Assembly (NCBI GenBank): GCA_902593795.1
Contig: CACJJR010000001.1
Coordinates: 131,230-195,229 of the forward strand
Length of the DNA stretch: 64,000 bases
Source: an uncultured Candidatus Actinomarina sp.
GTDB taxonomy: Bacteria > Actinomycetota > Acidimicrobiia > Actinomarinales > Actinomarinaceae
Direction: 5' to 3'
Shown: piece after piece, positions 2,174 to 32,178 of the stretch
Position numbering within the stretch: position 1 is the stretch's first letter
How the letters are laid out: each line of letters begins with the position of its first letter
Position numbers and translations under genes: made by a program
Notes under the pieces: generated by a model
The model's database searches: none
The model's input: the letters and a program-made list of their open reading frames with translations, nothing else
Told to the model about the DNA's origin: nothing

Positions 2174-3712
2174 TTATCCCATTACTTGCTCTGGCCCAAC
2201 AAGAATATACACACACTGTGGATTAGCAAACTTTTCGTTATTATCTATAACAGTAACTTCCAGTGCATTATTTATGTTTTTGATTTCAACACTTGCTCCC
2301 TGAGCTGTGCTTAGGTCAAGATCAATACATATATTCATTACTTTTATATCTGCTGGATTAGCACCTTCCACTAACCATTTCTTAGTTGGTGCTTGTGTTG
2401 GTCCAGTATTCAATGAGGTTATAGTGTATTTTGTTTCTATACGTTCTGTAAAGATAAGCACACCTCCATTGCGACTGCTAAAATTTCCAAATGCTAATAA
2501 TTGTCGTCCATTGGTTAAATCAAGAAAATCTGGATCACCTCCAGGTGGAAGGTACTCTGGTTCAGACCAGTTAATGCCATCAGGTCCTTTTCTGTATTCC
2601 ATAAAGTCATATGTTGGCCAGATCCATTCCACAATTCCTGCTCTATTTAGTTTGATAGCTGGGTTTGTAGTTACATCTATATCCCCACCATATAAACGAT
2701 CAATTTGTACACTCCAGCTAATTCCATCATTAGATGTTGCTACACACGCTCTTCGGTTAAAAGGGCCTAGAGGACTTACTAACTCTTGTACATGAAAAAT
2801 CCAAGAGCCATCATTTAATTTAGTAATTGTAGGATCTCCTAATGGTCCAAATGGGTTTCCGTCAGTGTCCTTGCAGTCTGATTGTACAAATCTTGGAATA
2901 CTAACTTCTTGAAAATTTTTTCCATCTGAAGATTCATATTTTACTAATGAGTCACCAGATGCGGAAAGTTTCCAGCCCCATGCAGATACTGTTCCGTCGA
3001 TTACTAATGCTTCAATAGGAGACTGAACAGGAACTCTAACGCCTGCCTCTACAATCCATGTTCTTCCCCCATCGCTGGACACCGCTGAATGAATCAAGTT
3101 GTCATATCCACTGATCCCTGCTTGAGGTTCATTACCGTTCTTAAAGTAAACCCTAAGATTCCCATCATTTGTTTGTACTAAAGATGGATCAGCAATATTT
3201 CCTAAATTGTTTTCTAAACTTCTAATTGAACCAAGATAGGAAAGATGCATAGAACTTAATGTAGTGCCTTGCATTACCGGGTTTCCCTGCTCTTGTTTTT
3301 GATTTGCTTCAGATGGAGAATTATCGCCTTCAGCGACTGGTTGTCTGCCACCTATGCCCGGATCCGGTGGTGGTGGTATATTACATGCTTTAAAATATTC
3401 TTGATATTTTTCCTGTGTTGCGTTTCCTTCAATTAAATCCTTTTCCATCTCCCTAATTACTTCAGATCCTGCTTTTTCAACTAAACATACTTGCTCACTT
3501 TTCAATAAATAGTAGAAAATGCCCTGAGGAAACTCTGCCAGCAGTTCTTCAACTATATTTTCAGTTGAAACTTTATCAATAGAAGTAGCATCATTAATTA
3601 TTGTTTCTTCTGTGCTTGACTCAATATTGATGTTGTCTGAAGAATTTTCTTCAGTTGAACAAGCTTGAAATAATAAAAGAAGAATTAAGCCTATATTTAT
3701 TGACTTTTTCAT
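2174..3712 (-). CDS. secreted/lipid-anchored BNR (Asp-box) repeat beta-propeller protein, sialidase/glycosidase-like, function unknown
   Basis: 512 aa. It has the signal peptide MKKSINIGLILLLLFQAC. Asp-box motifs are SSDGGRTW, SSDGKNF and SNDGISW. Confidence 0.7.
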   Translation of the reverse strand: MKKSINIGLILLLLFQACSTEENSSDNINIESSTEETIINDATSIDKVSTENIVEELLAEFPQGIFYYLLKSEQVCLVEKAGSEVIREMEKDLIEGNATQEKYQEYFKACNIPPPPDPGIGGRQPVAEGDNSPSEANQKQEQGNPVMQGTTLSSMHLSYLGSIRSLENNLGNIADPSLVQTNDGNLRVYFKNGNEPQAGISGYDNLIHSAVSSDGGRTWIVEAGVRVPVQSPIEALVIDGTVSAWGWKLSASGDSLVKYESSDGKNFQEVSIPRFVQSDCKDTDGNPFGPLGDPTITKLNDGSWIFHVQELVSPLGPFNRRACVATSNDGISWSVQIDRLYGGDIDVTTNPAIKLNRAGIVEWIWPTYDFMEYRKGPDGINWSEPEYLPPGGDPDFLDLTNGRQLLAFGNFSSRNGGVLIFTERIETKYTITSLNTGPTQAPTKKWLVEGANPADIKVMNICIDLDLSTAQGASVEIKNINNALEVTVIDNNEKFANPQCVYILVGPEQVMG

Positions 3713-3883
3713 ATATTAACTATTATATGAAATATTTCGTTTTACAAATAAATTACGTAATTTTATTAAAATTATAGATAGGACTTCCTTTCGTGCTTTG
3801 AGCCACTTCTAAAGCCGATAAAACAAAAATTTACAGCCACGGGGAGTCTTTTTGCTTTTTTTGGAATAAAAACCCTGTAAAAA

Positions 3884-4035
3884 GTGAAAATCCCGATTGA
3901 TCTTGCGACCTTCCGGGATTTTCTTACTATCTTCAATTAGGTCTTGCGACTTCATTTCTTATAGTTATATAAAAGTACAGTAGTTTTGTGATTTAAGCAA
4001 GATATTTTTGTTTCTTTTTTTCGCGAACTTTTATA
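3884..4035 (-). promoter_or_regulatory. copy A of a duplicated ~150-nt upstream element (promoter-like part plus a 36-nt hairpin with U tract) before the BNR lipoprotein gene 2174..3712
   Basis: It aligns block by block with 5069..5221. The hairpin at 3887..3922 is AAAATCCCG/CGGGATTTT enclosing GGTC-GCAA-GATC (minus-strand sense). It also has a TTCGCGAA palindrome at 4020..4027. Confidence 0.5.
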
Positions 4036-4058
4036 CATGTTTTCTATAGTTTTTATAT

Positions 4059-5036
4059 CTATGGCGTTATTAAAACCATGGAGTAAAGAATGTAATCTCT
4101 GTCTCCTAACTCATTTGGAGCTACAGAAGATATCAATAAATAAGTGCCGTTGTCTAACAAAATACCTGTTGGGTCAAGATAGCTCATATTCGTTGGTGAT
4201 ATTGCATTTCCAGTAAATTCCCAAGTAAGGCCATCTTTTGACGTACCGTAAAAAATACTCTGAGGGATTCTTGGAAGCCCTTCTGGTGAATAGGAAAAGA
4301 CAGCCTCCCAATTATTTTCTTCAGCTCGTAAAACTTCAAAATCAACATAACCATTTTCTAGCCTGTATCCTGGATCTTTCGTAAATTTTATTCCTTTAGG
4401 TGAATCTGAAGTAGCGCTTACTATTTTTTCTCCACGCATTCCTGTTGATTCTGCAACCCAATAAAGTCTTACACGTCCATCCGGTAAAAGAACTGAATCG
4501 GGAACACCCCAAGCCATACTTCCGCCATCGTTAAAACCTAACGATTTTGATTCGGAGTAGGTTAGTCCATCCTCACTGAATATAGCCGTATATATTTCTT
4601 TCGATTTTGTATTAGGGTTGAGTTCAACATAATACCCCCTTCTAACACCATCTACAGTTGTAATTAATGTTAAGTCTTGAACTCTGTTTACTACACCTTG
4701 TCTGATACAGTTCAGTTCATAATCACATAAATCCACAGCTAATCCCATTACATCAAGACTCGAATAAAAAATTCTTAATGTAGAGCTGTCAACAACTTCC
4801 ATATGTGGACTTACGCCCCTTACCATCATGTTTTTAATTTCTGAAAGAACTCCGTCTGGCTGAAGAGTAGTTGTGGTTGTATCTTGAACTGTAGTTGTGG
4901 TTGTATCTTGAACTGTAGTTGTGGTTGTCTCCTGTTCTTCAGTAGAAGCAGGCTGTTCAACTGAGCTTGTAACACCCTCTACGCTTGAACCTCCACAAGA
5001 AATAAGTATGAATCCTAAAAATATTATTTTCTTCAT
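4059..5036 (-). CDS. lipoprotein with a Thr-rich linker and a BNR (Asp-box) beta-propeller-like domain, function unknown
   Basis: 325 aa. It has the lipobox LISC, the linker TTTTTVQDTTTTTVQDTTTTTLQ, and Asp-boxes SEDGLTY and SKDGLTW. Confidence 0.7.
   Translation of the reverse strand: MKKIIFLGFILISCGGSSVEGVTSSVEQPASTEEQETTTTTVQDTTTTTVQDTTTTTLQPDGVLSEIKNMMVRGVSPHMEVVDSSTLRIFYSSLDVMGLAVDLCDYELNCIRQGVVNRVQDLTLITTVDGVRRGYYVELNPNTKSKEIYTAIFSEDGLTYSESKSLGFNDGGSMAWGVPDSVLLPDGRVRLYWVAESTGMRGEKIVSATSDSPKGIKFTKDPGYRLENGYVDFEVLRAEENNWEAVFSYSPEGLPRIPQSIFYGTSKDGLTWEFTGNAISPTNMSYLDPTGILLDNGTYLLISSVAPNELGDRDYILYSMVLITP
4867..4930 (-). repeat. 24-bp tandem repeat (about 2.6 copies) encoding the Thr-rich linker
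   Basis: On the plus strand, gtagttgtggttgtatcttgaact occurs at 4867..4890 and again exactly at 4891..4914. A diverged partial copy follows to 4930. Confidence 0.9.
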
Positions 5037-5068
5037 ATTTTGATACTACACAGTTATTTCATGACAAA

Positions 5069-5221
5069 AGCAAAAATCCCGATTGATCTTGCGACCCTCC
5101 GGGATTTTTTATTCTATCTTCTTTTCCATCTTGCGATTTCTTTTCCGATAGTGTTCTATAAATATACGTTAGTTTTTGTTCTTACGCAAGATATTTACTA
5201 ATGTATTTTTCGCGAGGTTTA
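5069..5221 (-). promoter_or_regulatory. copy B of the duplicated upstream element, before the BNR lipoprotein gene 4059..5036
   Basis: The hairpin at 5072..5110 has the same arms and the same GGTC-GCAA-GATC interior as copy A. A second small GCAA hairpin at 5128..5137 corresponds to 3941..3950 in copy A. TTCGCGAG lies at 5209..5216. Confidence 0.5.
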
Positions 5222-5266
5222 GGAACCATTTTCAACATCAAGAACAATATTCCTAATATAAAAAAC

Positions 5267-5716
5267 CTATTCTTCTTCTTGAAAACTAAATGATGGAAAA
5301 ACATTATGGATTTCATTAATTGGGACATCATCAATTTGAATACTGTATGTCTCTTCATCAAATGAAATCTTTAGAAAATTATCCTCTACTAATTCAACGT
5401 TTGTTATATCAAATGTATTCCTAATTACAGAAAGTGTTTTTTCTTTTGTACGGAGCACTATCTTTGTATCAATAACTTCAATAACCGGTTGGAATATACT
5501 TTGAATTGATATGAATAGTTGTAGTAACCCAAAAAATAGTAAAAGATAGTAAAGGTATTCCTCCCTCGAGTTTGATCCAAATTCTCCTAATTTAAAATAG
5601 GTTATCATTAGTTTTCTAAAAGGGCCTGAAATAATATTATCTATTCCAATGTATGTAAGGAGACTTCCCCTGAGAAGTGGGAGAAGAAGACTATTCCTAT
5701 CTCTATAAATTTTCAT
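5267..5716 (-). CDS. hypothetical membrane protein
   Basis: 149 aa. It has one or two hydrophobic segments (YLYYLLLFFGLLQLFISIQSIF) followed by a soluble acidic C-terminal domain. No motif was recognised. Confidence 0.55.
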   Translation of the reverse strand: MKIYRDRNSLLLPLLRGSLLTYIGIDNIISGPFRKLMITYFKLGEFGSNSREEYLYYLLLFFGLLQLFISIQSIFQPVIEVIDTKIVLRTKEKTLSVIRNTFDITNVELVEDNFLKISFDEETYSIQIDDVPINEIHNVFPSFSFQEEE

Positions 5717-23295: not shown

Positions 23296-23465
23296 CTTTC
23301 TTACCTTGAGAAAATTTAGGAAACTTCAAGAATTTCTAGAAACTTCATCCCTTCTCTCGAGGACTGTCGTTATACAAATAATGAAGTCGACCTGACTTAT
23401 CTTTCGAATTACAGTTGCGGGACAGTGCTAGATTTTCACTAACTTCGCTCCATTATTCTTGTTGA
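23296..23465 (-). promoter_or_regulatory. cobalamin (B12) riboswitch
   Basis: The minus strand reads ...AAUGGAGCGAAGUUAGUGAAAAUCUAGCACUGUCCCGCAACUGUAA...GAUAAGUCAGGUCGACUUC... This matches the GGUGAAAAUCC / CCCGCAACUGUAA core and the AGUCAGG..AC B12-box. Downstream, UUUCCU can pair with the AGGAAA SD. Confidence 0.8.
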
Positions 23466-23476
23466 ATAGTAGCAGG

Positions 23477-30128: not shown

Positions 30129-31451
30129 TTAAACACTCTCAAGAGAATTGTTCTTAAAAGTTATTTTATTGTTGAAAATGTTTATTTCTTTCTTCAAACC
30201 AGGAGAACCCTCAACTTTTTTAATTGAGGACAGAATGGTCGAGTGAGATCTGTTTCCAACATACAGACCAATCTGATTTAAAGAATATTCGGTGTGTTTT
30301 CTCATTAAATATATAAAGAGGTGCCTAGCGTTGCTAACCTGCTCGCTTCTGTTTTTAGACAAAACCAGCCTTTTATCAACTTGATATAAATCTGAGCAGT
30401 AATCAAGAATAAACTCTGGCGTAAGCTCTAAAACTTTGTTTTCACTATACATTGAAACAAGCTCTGCAACGTATTTAGCATTACCCTCACCTGTTTGTTT
30501 ATTGATTATAAGGTTGTTCACAACACCATTTATTTCCCTAAAGCTTTGAAAGTCTAAAGAGGAAAGTAGTTTAAACTCTTTATTTGTTACCAGGTTTCCA
30601 CCATATTCTTTGTTGCTTTGATTCAGCACCTCTGAGAATATTTTTTTATCAGGCTTTTCAATATCAGTAACGAGCCCGTTTAATATTCTTGACACCAATC
30701 TCTCAGGAAAACCAAGAAGATCTTGTGGTTTTTGATCAGACGCCAAAACAACGGCTTTAGAATTATTTAAAAAATAGTTTATGGTGTGAAAAAGCTCTTC
30801 AGAAACACCCTTTTTGCCTAAGAAAAACTGAATATCGTCAATTAACAATATATCAACAGATCTTATTTTGTTTTTAAAAATGTCTATATCTTTGTTTTTT
30901 ATTCCGCTTATATAAGATTCAAGAAAGGACTCTGAATCGATATAAAAAGAGGAGTAAGAAGCCTTTTCTATGGTTTTAAGTAAGTGGGTTTTTCCGACAC
31001 CTGGCTTTCCATAAACAAAAAGAGGATTAAAACGACTACCGGGATTCATGACAACGTTTTTAGCGGCTGTTACGGCAAGGTTGTTACAACTACCTATAAA
31101 CAAATCGTCAAAAAAATCAAGATCAAACACTGGCTGGTCCTCAATGATCTCCTCTTCGACTTTTTCTTCTATAACTTCAACTGATTGAGGGGGTTTAATA
31201 AAAGATTTATCAAGAACAAAGACACAGTTATGACCAGGCTTTATTGATTTATATACCTTTTCAATGCTATTAAAAACTTTTTTCTCAATAGAGGTCTTAA
31301 TAAAATCAGAACCAACATAAATATTTAAATTACCATCGGGACTTATTTCAAAACCAACCTGGTCAAGCCAGTACTTATCAGTTTTATTTTCTACTTCACT
31401 ATTTAATTTATTTTTAAAGTCTTGTAGTTGACTATTCATATCTCCACCCAA
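30129..31451 (-). CDS. dnaA: chromosomal replication initiator DnaA
   Basis: 440 aa. It has Walker A GKPGVGKTHLL, DDIQF, and the C-terminal DNA-binding block LNQIGLYVGNRSHSTILSSIKK. The true start may be the ATG at 31439 rather than the TTG at 31451. Confidence 0.95.
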   Translation of the reverse strand: MGGDMNSQLQDFKNKLNSEVENKTDKYWLDQVGFEISPDGNLNIYVGSDFIKTSIEKKVFNSIEKVYKSIKPGHNCVFVLDKSFIKPPQSVEVIEEKVEEEIIEDQPVFDLDFFDDLFIGSCNNLAVTAAKNVVMNPGSRFNPLFVYGKPGVGKTHLLKTIEKASYSSFYIDSESFLESYISGIKNKDIDIFKNKIRSVDILLIDDIQFFLGKKGVSEELFHTINYFLNNSKAVVLASDQKPQDLLGFPERLVSRILNGLVTDIEKPDKKIFSEVLNQSNKEYGGNLVTNKEFKLLSSLDFQSFREINGVVNNLIINKQTGEGNAKYVAELVSMYSENKVLELTPEFILDYCSDLYQVDKRLVLSKNRSEQVSNARHLFIYLMRKHTEYSLNQIGLYVGNRSHSTILSSIKKVEGSPGLKKEINIFNNKITFKNNSLESV

Positions 31452-31722
31452 CTTTATTAAACTTAAACGACACCATTAATATTTCATAGAGTGTGAAAAA
31501 CATATTAAATTTTTACAATTCGTTGCACCTTACCGACAAACCTTGTTTTTATTGGCTTTTGTGTGTATAAATCAACAAACAACAAACCAAAAGTTGTTGT
31601 TATAAGATGTTAGTTAGTTTGTTTTTCGCGATGTATAAATACTTTTCGCGAAGTGTAAAAATTAAAAATAAATTTGGTTTGTTTAAATACTTTATTGATT
31701 TAATGTTAGTTAAAGGTAAAAA
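31452..31722. other. candidate replication origin (oriC) / divergent rpmH-dnaA promoter region
   Basis: Gene orientation switches here. The spacer is 272 bp and AT-rich. TGTGTATAA (31562..31570) matches the reverse DnaA box TGTGGATAA at 8 of 9 positions. The repeat TGTATAAAT occurs twice and TTCGCGA(A/T) occurs twice. Confidence 0.5.
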
Positions 31723-31857
31723 ATGAAAAGAACTTATCAACCTAGTAATAGAAAAAGAAGCAGAAAACACGGTTTTAGATCAAGAATGCGAACCCGAGCT
31801 GGTCGCGAAATTCTTAAAAGAAGAAGAAAAAAAGGTCGAAAGATTATCTCTGCCTAG
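31723..31857 (+). CDS. rpmH: 50S ribosomal protein L34
   Basis: It is not in the ORF track (44 aa). The sequence is [44 protein letters not shown]. Confidence 0.95.
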
Positions 31858-31860
31858 GTT

Positions 31861-32178
31861 TTGTTGGTGAAGTTCGCTGCATTAAATAAAAAAAATCATT
31901 TTGAAAGCCTAAGAAAAGAAGAATTCTGCTTTGCAGAAAAAGGCGTAAGAGTTTTTGTAAAAGAAAATTATGTTGACACAAACAGACTAGCAGTCAGCAT
32001 TTCAAGCAAATACGCAAACGCTGTAAACAGAAATAGATTTAAAAGAAGGATTAAAGAAGTAGTCAGGGGTTTAGAAACAGATTTAAGTATTGATATTTTA
32101 GTTGAAGGAAACTCGAAATCTCCATTACTAAAATTGAATGAAGTTGAAACAATCTTAAAAAAACACCCTCTGCTTTAA
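31861..32178 (+). CDS. rnpA: ribonuclease P protein component
   Basis: 105 aa. It has the NRNRFKRRIKE motif and a position after rpmH. The start is a non-ATG (TTG/GTG). Confidence 0.85.
   Translation: MLVKFAALNKKNHFESLRKEEFCFAEKGVRVFVKENYVDTNRLAVSISSKYANAVNRNRFKRRIKEVVRGLETDLSIDILVEGNSKSPLLKLNEVETILKKHPLL

Follow-up and report, generated by a model that had tools for sequence, protein, structure and literature searches.

The Qrr1-5 RNAs of Vibrio are multicopy small RNAs (sRNAs) whose upstream regulator site is conserved, and the Yfr2 family of the marine picocyanobacteria, likewise multicopy, carries conserved repeated unpaired motifs in streamlined marine bacteria. Among the Actinobacteria, which to our knowledge are generally without Hfq, the 6C RNA (Rfam RF01066) is a two-hairpin small RNA with C-rich loops. 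The closest architectural precedent for the element described here is LhrC1-5 of Listeria monocytogenes, a multicopy sRNA family in which all five copies depend on the LisRK two-component system, and in which the first loop and the loop of the terminator carry one and the same motif (PMC4132741). The element in question is a non-coding module of ~150 nucleotides (nt), present twice in a 64,000-nt stretch of the genome of an uncultured Candidatus Actinomarina sp. (contig CACJJR010000001.1, positions 131,230 to 195,229; the whole stretch is hereafter the window), which belongs to a group whose members rank with the smallest and most abundant of the free-living bacteria in the sea. On balance, we regard it as probable that each copy is a self-contained sRNA transcription unit and that the copies constitute a sibling family restricted to Candidatus Actinomarina and the order Actinomarinales. 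The family would then be a new candidate among the small RNAs, confined to one lineage and of a general kind that is already known.

The resemblance to LhrC lies in the presence of several paralogous RNA genes of ~100 nt per genome, in an apparently common control (LisRK there, a shared TCGCGAAAAA box here) and in the combination of a 5' hairpin with a terminator hairpin that repeats the same loop motif. However, the CU-rich UCCC motifs of LhrC pair with Shine-Dalgarno regions, whereas the loops of the module are GNRA, its exposed strands are purine-rich and its neighbouring genes appear leaderless; there is no sequence or motif similarity between the two. With Qrr and Yfr2, which belong to another phylum, the module shares neither sequence nor structure, no Rfam family being matched above chance level at E <= 10. 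It resembles the 6C RNA in its size, its two hairpins and its phylum, but differs in that both of its loops are GNRA and the Rfam scan returned no match. As in the leaders of riboswitches and attenuators, a promoter, a structured domain and an intrinsic terminator are usually followed by a co-oriented gene; in contrast to such leaders, the module is without an antiterminator or a coherent gene set, it occurs in orphan and tandem copies, and the downstream genes appear to have promoters of their own. Finally, like bidirectional intrinsic terminators, it has a GC-cored hairpin between A and U tracts, which in 20 of the 212 copies serves a convergent gene as well, but it adds what would be its own promoter and a second structured domain, and its sequence is nearly invariant across the genus.

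The two copies in the window, both on the minus strand, are located as follows:

5221..5069, minus strand: copy A of the element, in the spacer 5266..5037
4035..3884, minus strand: copy B of the element, in the spacer 4058..3713

An initial annotation of this DNA had placed two copies here, had aligned them by blocks and had remarked on the unusual length of their spacers. The same coordinates and strand were recovered by us, the spacer alignment agrees, and the spacers are indeed long for Actinomarinales genomes, in which the median spacer is 2-3 base pairs (bp); the genome of Candidatus Actinomarina encodes only two sigma factors (PMC7771536). The identity between A and B amounts to 93% over 43 nt in the terminator-hairpin block and to 71% over 68 nt in the promoter block. 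The motif TCGCAAGAY occurs four times in the 64 kb, always within the two copies, where ~0.43 occurrences are expected and none of 100 shuffles reaches four; the hairpin pattern occurs twice, against an expectation of 0. A covariance model trained on 79 distinct copies (R1) retrieves exactly two copies in the window, at 110.5 bits (A) and 103.4 bits (B), its next-best matches being the opposite strand of the same two hairpins. The non-coding copies are much more alike than the two downstream proteins, which had been described as paralogous; these are linked through intermediates only, without significant pairwise similarity (E = 0.41), and the element is therefore far better conserved than the genes behind it. 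A recent tandem duplication of gene and spacer is excluded as the origin of the pair.

Every copy displays the same anatomy, namely a TCGCGAAAAA box, a -35 hexamer TTGCnn, a variable spacer of 17 nt, a -10 hexamer TAnnTT, a predicted RNA of ~87 nt and a terminator. The putative promoter elements in the window are the following:

5206..5215, minus strand: upstream box TCGCGAAAAA of copy A, about -61..-52 from the predicted start, invariant in the alignment
5184..5189, minus strand: -35 hexamer TTGCGT of copy A, read from the sequence, TTGC being conserved in the family
5161..5166, minus strand: -10 hexamer TATATT of copy A, read from the sequence, TAnnTT being conserved in the family
4017..4026, minus strand: upstream box TCGCGAAAAA of copy B, inside the perfect palindrome TTCGCGAA, supported by the family box count
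3995..4000, minus strand: -35 hexamer TTGCTT of copy B, from sequence and family alignment
3972..3977, minus strand: -10 hexamer TACTTT of copy B (TATTTT in most relatives), from sequence and family alignment

Across the 60 loci in which the module follows a gene for a protein of 149 amino acids (aa), conservation of the box and of both hexamers contrasts with a variable 17-nt spacer, which is the pattern expected of a promoter; within the promoter-like TTGC(G/T)T region of the initial annotation, it is TTGC that is conserved, as part of the -35. Of the 255 family copies, 251 have the exact TCGCGAAAAA sequence at a constant distance, 77-79 nt upstream of the P2 helix described below, and a shared operator, as suggested earlier, may hold for this box. 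In about 1.4 Mb of Actinomarina DNA, 280 of the 281 boxes belong to a module. It is probable that the box is the site of a DNA-binding factor, or else UP-element-like. The TTCGCGA(A/G) palindrome that had been described at this position is perfect in copy B but imperfect in copy A (CTCGCGAA, coding strand), the invariant core being TCGCGAAAAA. The conserved hexamers and the fixed box would thus provide each copy with a promoter of its own, as is characteristic of sibling sRNAs. Pairwise identity averages 84% in the module and 63% in the coding gene next to it, and where that gene has fallen to 50-70% the module still stands at 81%. A scan for consensus promoters and terminators missed both the module promoter and the hairpin and was counted neither for nor against: copy A escaped because TTGCGT matches TTGACA at only three of six positions, and the hairpin because the loop limit of 8 nt has no room for its inner helix.

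The only other TCGCGAAAAA-type boxes in the window lie at 31622-31651 on the minus strand, within the spacer 31452-31860; one of them is exact, the other is TCGCGAAAAG, and they are 20 nt apart. They are situated upstream of dnaA (30129-31451, minus strand), between this gene and the divergent rnpA (31861-32178), which suggests that the promoter of dnaA, or the origin region, could be a further site of action of the factor that binds the module box. No enrichment of DnaA-box-like 9-mers was observed in the window.

The predicted RNA and its helices, designated P1 to P4, are placed as follows:

5066..5154, minus strand: predicted small RNA of copy A, about 87 nt, with its start set 7 nt after the -10 and its end in the U tract
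5114..5151, minus strand: P1 of copy A (CUAUC/GAUAG) around a 9x9 purine-rich internal loop, and P2 (AUC-GCAA-GAU), supported by covariation
5072..5109, minus strand: P3/P4 terminator hairpin of copy A, AAAAAUCCCGG-AG-GGUC-GCAA-GAUC-AA-UCGGGAUUUUU, with the U tract to 5066, supported by pairing and covariation
3879..3965, minus strand: predicted small RNA of copy B, about 85 nt, supported by its fold and R1 score
3926..3965, minus strand: P1 of copy B (ACUAU/AUAGU), internal loop and P2 (GUC-GCAA-GAC), supported by covariation and fold
3886..3923, minus strand: P3/P4 terminator hairpin of copy B, followed by an interrupted U tract UUUUCACUUUUU, supported by alignment and fold

Both predicted RNAs adopt a single dominant fold, the centroid being identical to the minimum free energy (MFE) structure. 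The latter has -24.9 kcal/mol in copy A (z -3.87, 53% of the ensemble) and -26.5 kcal/mol in copy B (z -4.15, 46% of the ensemble). A short A-rich linker separates the P1/P2 domain from P3, and in copy A the P3 stem (AAAAAUCCCGG/UCGGGAUUUUU) leads through a 2x2 purine internal loop to P4 (GGUC-GCAA-GAUC).

All four helices, P1, P2, P3 and P4, are supported by compensatory changes, the evidence that the initial annotation had called for. In the family alignment (A2), 94.3% of the cells are paired, compared with 30-50% when the partners are slid by 1-3 columns, and double-change cells number 61 against 21 +/- 3 in shuffles, none of 500 reaching the observed value. Among the 157 unique sequences, the closing pair of P2 is intact in every case, as AU in 72 and as GC in 85; the compensatory difference between AUC-GCAA-GAU and GUC-GCAA-GAC, first noticed between the two copies of the window, is real and recurs family-wide. 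The P2 loop is always GNRA (GCAA in 136, GAAA in 21), P1 shows UA<->AU and CG<->UA/AU swaps, and the two inner pairs of P3 range over AU, GU and GC in the same sequences. P4 swaps UA<->CG, and GGCC-GAGA-GGUC variants exist; in copies retrieved with P4 left unconstrained, the P4 loop reads GCAA, GAAA, GUAA or GAGA, or GGAA in one genome copy, hence always GNRA, and the GAGA and some of the GAAA loops are accompanied by the compensating stem GGCC/GGUC. The 15-bp terminator hairpin is paired in 100% of the 157 sequences at 14 of its 15 pairs and in 99% at the outermost one; one P3 pair is gapped in two sequences, P2, P3 and P4 being otherwise 100% paired. This hairpin is the most conserved part of the module, whereas the internal-loop sequences of P1 differ between module types. 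The terminator-like GCAA hairpin with its U-rich tract, as originally noted, is present in both copies and throughout the family, and with this covariation it would serve as each copy's own intrinsic terminator, a further characteristic of sibling sRNAs.

Several smaller observations concern the same RNA. The purine-rich strands flanking P2 are near-direct repeats (GAAAAGAA twice; A2 columns 22 and 41, window positions 5140 and 5121 in copy A), and in several copies, among them L039, L056, L093 and L094, both strands have GAAAAUAA instead, a joint change even though the two do not pair with each other. Either gene conversion or a pair of equivalent sites at which one partner binds could account for it. 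A small open reading frame (ORF) in the copy A RNA (AUG GAA AAG AAG AUA GAA UAA) was rejected, its AUG being missing in most copies. P4 (GGUCGCAAGAUC) may resemble helix 27 of the 16S ribosomal RNA of many bacteria, which is retained as a lead only.

The two-hairpin pattern was found in 95 stretches of species-representative genomes, and the matches not attributable to chance come nearly all from Candidatus Actinomarina, OCS155 or Actinomarinales. Model R1 gave 122 matches in 72 genome loci, including copies that the pattern had missed, and a metagenome scan anchored on P1/P2 alone reached at least 120 marine contigs. The further copies for which the initial annotation had proposed a search are thus numerous, in Actinomarina genomes and in marine metagenomes. 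Copies are often found two or three to a locus and about three or four to a genome assembly; for example, one genome has four (loci L010 and L051) and a contig of 1.01 Mb has three (L049 and L077). Module types A and B are conserved across genomes. The family consequently consists of several paralogous copies per genome with a conserved core, as sibling sRNAs do. No copies were found in viral contigs. Rfam 15 gave no match to the module in a scan of the whole window at the gathering score, and over 3600-5400 at E <= 10 it returned chance-level matches only (E 5.2-9.9, 13-19 bits compared with gathering scores of 40-114), in agreement with the earlier remark that no known riboswitch class could be recognised. 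The element is undescribed in the Actinomarina literature that was searched and in the Red Sea primary-transcriptome study. A module copy with the second conserved block (described below) was also seen on a 2.9-kb contig of a metagenome-assembled genome labelled Flavobacteriaceae (L011), which is most likely a mis-binned Actinomarina contig.

We propose that transcription of the sRNA would be initiated at a sigma-70-type promoter (-35 TTGCnn, 17-nt spacer, -10 TAnnTT), with the TCGCGAAAAA box at about -60 and the start about 7 nt after the -10 (near 5154 in copy A). The product of ~87 nt would comprise two domains, the first formed by P1, two exposed purine-rich strands and the GNRA-capped P2, and the second by the GNRA-capped P3/P4 and the U tract. 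The P3/P4 hairpin and its U tract would end the sRNA transcript, and the same hairpin, which lies between an A tract and a U tract, would also stop the transcripts of the upstream gene and of a convergent gene, acting as a bidirectional terminator. Each adjacent protein gene would have a leaderless promoter of its own, situated 3' of the hairpin and before the start codon. It can be hypothesised that the likeliest roles of the RNA are those of a trans-acting regulator, or of a protein-binding RNA under the control of the factor that recognises the box.

Several points weigh against this proposal. The start, the end and the discrete existence of the RNA are predictions from the DNA. Variation of the loops, albeit within GNRA, speaks against a pairing seed located in them. 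In most copies a gene of the same orientation starts 25-190 nt downstream, and some coupling by read-through may occur. The family alignments were selected by pattern and consist of closely related sequences, so that much of the invariance is uninformative and the counts do not represent independent events. Neither a target nor a partner was found: predicted duplexes of the RNA with the 5' ends of adjacent genes average -10.9 kcal/mol, which does not differ significantly from the -10.1 of gene interiors (p = 0.056); the lipoprotein genes reach -16 to -17 kcal/mol, because their signal-peptide codons are pyrimidine-rich.

The genes and sites around the two copies, on which the alternative explanations depend, are these:

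5267..5716, minus strand: 149-aa gene upstream of copy A, its syntenic partner in 60 loci
4059..5036, minus strand: ORF of a predicted lipoprotein of 325 aa between copies A and B (a cassette), with lipobox LISC and Thr-rich repeats
5043..5048, minus strand: TAGTAT, -10-like, 6 nt before the ATG (5036) of the 325-aa gene, read from the sequence
3782..3848, minus strand: second conserved block, GACUCCCCGUGGCUGUAA...GUGGCUCAAAGCACGAAAGGAAGUC, ~67 nt, outside the module, with 47 unique versions
2174..3712, minus strand: ORF of a predicted lipoprotein of 512 aa downstream of copy B and the second block, in the same single-linkage cluster as other variable secreted proteins
3722..3727, minus strand: TATAAT, -10 hexamer, 9 nt before the ATG (3712) of the 512-aa gene, read from the sequence

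It is unlikely, in our judgement, that the module acts as a cis-acting leader whose promoter drives the downstream gene and whose P3/P4 is a conditional terminator, controlled by a ligand or an RNA-binding protein that recognises P1/P2. Such a leader would be of a new class, as Rfam gives no match, and it would account for the hairpin between the promoter and a co-oriented gene in most copies, for the conservation and covariation of the P1/P2 domain, and for the interrupted, presumably leakier, U tract of copy B. However, one fold is dominant and there is no antiterminator pairing: no alternative fold was found and, by reading, no upstream segment is complementary to the 5' half of P3. The most conserved part is the terminator hairpin rather than the putative sensor, the opposite of the usual riboswitch pattern, and the internal loops differ between module types. 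The downstream genes have no common function, since they encode secreted NHL/beta-propeller lipoproteins, cytochrome P450, endonuclease IV (an AP, or apurinic/apyrimidinic, endonuclease), a 5'-3' exonuclease, a Zn-dependent dehydrogenase of the alcohol-dehydrogenase family, and a transfer RNA (tRNA). As many as 46 of the 212 non-redundant copies have no gene to control, 26 being directly followed by a further complete module that has a box and a promoter of its own, and 20 facing a convergent GNAT gene whose stop codon lies inside the U tract of the module. In favour of a leader, an ORF starts within 80 nt in 66 of the 212 copies, the second block and then a gene follow in 67, and many of the 31 classed as 'other' precede lipoprotein genes with a GTG start.

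The downstream genes moreover carry their own -10 at leaderless spacing. A TANNNT motif ends 6 nt (50%) or 7 nt (21%) before the start codon, that is, in 71% of the 162 genes after modules, compared with about 3% at control ATGs, the commonest hexamers being TATACT, TATAAT and TAAAAT; the homologues of the 512-aa gene in relatives have TATAAT 6 nt before the ATG. In Actinobacteria the -10 motif has the form TANNNT, and messenger RNAs without a leader are common in the phylum (PMC3898074). The spacing of 6-7 nt points to leaderless promoters belonging to the downstream genes and placed 3' of the hairpin. The initial annotation had favoured a shared cis-regulatory RNA, either attenuator or riboswitch-like, and had named promoters of the lipoprotein genes downstream of the hairpins as an arrangement that would contradict it. 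The shared structured element stands, with its covariation and its many copies; its role as an attenuator or riboswitch of the lipoprotein genes is not supported, and at the level of the sequence this very arrangement is found. A co-transcribed leader, mutually exclusive folds and a shared pathway among the controlled genes, by which a riboswitch or attenuator would be recognised, do not appear to be present here.

An explanation at the level of the DNA is likewise doubtful. The module would in that case be a portable combination of promoter and terminator (a 'mobile promoter' or insulator), which provides homology at cassette junctions and whose RNA is a by-product. The organisation of the locus favours such an explanation. 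The main locus consists of a divergent histidine phosphatase gene, the 149-aa gene, module A, zero to three cassettes, the second block, zero to three lipoprotein genes, and then nfo and lysA; each cassette, whether P450, convergent GNAT gene or lipoproteins, is preceded by another module copy. In the window, this arrangement takes the form of copy A, the 325-aa lipoprotein gene, copy B, the second block and the 512-aa lipoprotein gene, followed by nfo and lysA, and in many genomes a minimal form is found in which A and B are adjacent with no gene between them. A second conserved site of the module lies upstream of the 5'-3' exonuclease gene. The copies thus flank each variable cassette between conserved genes and sit at the junctions of variable gene cassettes. 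Copies of the same locus share the P3 stem variant in 93 of 99 pairs, compared with 58 +/- 3 when shuffled, which indicates concerted evolution through recombination or gene conversion between copies. In complete Actinomarina genomes, internal repeats are reported to be very few and to have a median length of 152 bp (preprint 10.64898/2026.04.03.716425), a length that fits the module, although the preprint does not characterise those repeats. Many genome and metagenome contigs end at the module, within about 100 nt of a copy, in L011, L020, L076, L096, L097, L106, L113, L123, L124, L145, L148, L150, L159, L171, L174 and others; such ends are expected if the repeat breaks short-read assemblies.

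Against an explanation of this kind stand the compensatory changes that hold P1, P2 and P4 paired, together with the GNRA nature of both loops, as maintained pairing and GNRA loops imply selection on the RNA beyond the need of a promoter or a plain terminator. On inspection, the listed sequences and the gene maps showed neither terminal inverted repeats nor target-site duplications nor genes for a recombinase, no formal test having been made. No transposase or integrase gene is found among the neighbours of the module, the module positions are syntenic, and no copies occur in viral contigs; the module does not appear to have the properties of a transposable or miniature mobile element.

A combination of both functions can also be envisaged, in which a regulated sRNA, whose TCGCGAAAAA factor also acts upstream of dnaA, is encoded by copies that serve at the same time as recombination joints swapping surface-protein, P450 and GNAT cassettes. 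We consider this double role distinctly improbable; the variable cassette locus is about 26 kb from dnaA. Least probable is that the copies are nothing but plain intrinsic terminators of the upstream genes (5267..5716 and 4059..5036), duplicated with their flanks. In favour of this, the hairpin between its A and U tracts is of classic form, every locus has a co-oriented gene upstream of it, and it serves the convergent GNAT gene, whose stop codon is in the U tract. However, this would leave unexplained the invariant box, the conserved -35 and -10 with their variable spacer and the covarying P1/P2, all situated upstream of the hairpin, and the hairpin sequence is conserved far beyond the needs of stem-loop stability. 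In the sRNA proposal, which we prefer, the hairpin would retain this function as a secondary one, the transcript of the 149-aa gene also ending at the hairpin of copy A.

The retention of three or four non-coding modules of ~150 nt, with a conservation above that of the protein genes beside them, implies that their function is important. Should the RNA prove to be a regulator, it would join the very few known from the lineage, and would bring with it a recognisable control site. The module may explain the internal repeats of ~150 bp in complete Actinomarina genomes, as well as the assembly breaks at the locus, and, if the double role were true, it would show an ultra-streamlined genome organising its flexible genes in a new way. 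It also constitutes a concrete target for the mapping of ocean metatranscriptome reads.

The second conserved block, which the initial annotation had left unseparated from the element in the spacer of copy B (3848..3782), has the sequence GACUCCCyGUGGCUGUAA...GUGGCUCAAAGCACGAAAGGAAGUC, in which GUGGCU is repeated twice. Each locus has a single such block, which precedes the first lipoprotein gene or nfo, with or without a module directly before it. The interpretation of the block as a structured RNA was rejected, with no covariation, a fold z of +0.75 and no Rfam match; it may be a regulatory region at the DNA level.

With respect to the neighbouring genes, the lipoproteins had been described as BNR-repeat proteins; Pfam gives no BNR domain in either, and only Asp-box-like SxDGxxW motifs are visible. 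Three tandem repeats of 24 nt in the 325-aa lipoprotein gene (4861-4932) encode a Thr-rich linker, TTTTTVQD x3, just after the lipobox. A type-B module lies ~25 nt upstream of a tRNA gene in two loci (L074, 3065-3161; L128). Elsewhere in the window, at 23337-23473 on the minus strand, an adenosylcobalamin (AdoCbl, cobalamin) riboswitch (Rfam RF01482) was detected at 54.6 bits, with a gathering score of 50, as the only family of Rfam to reach its gathering score in the whole window.

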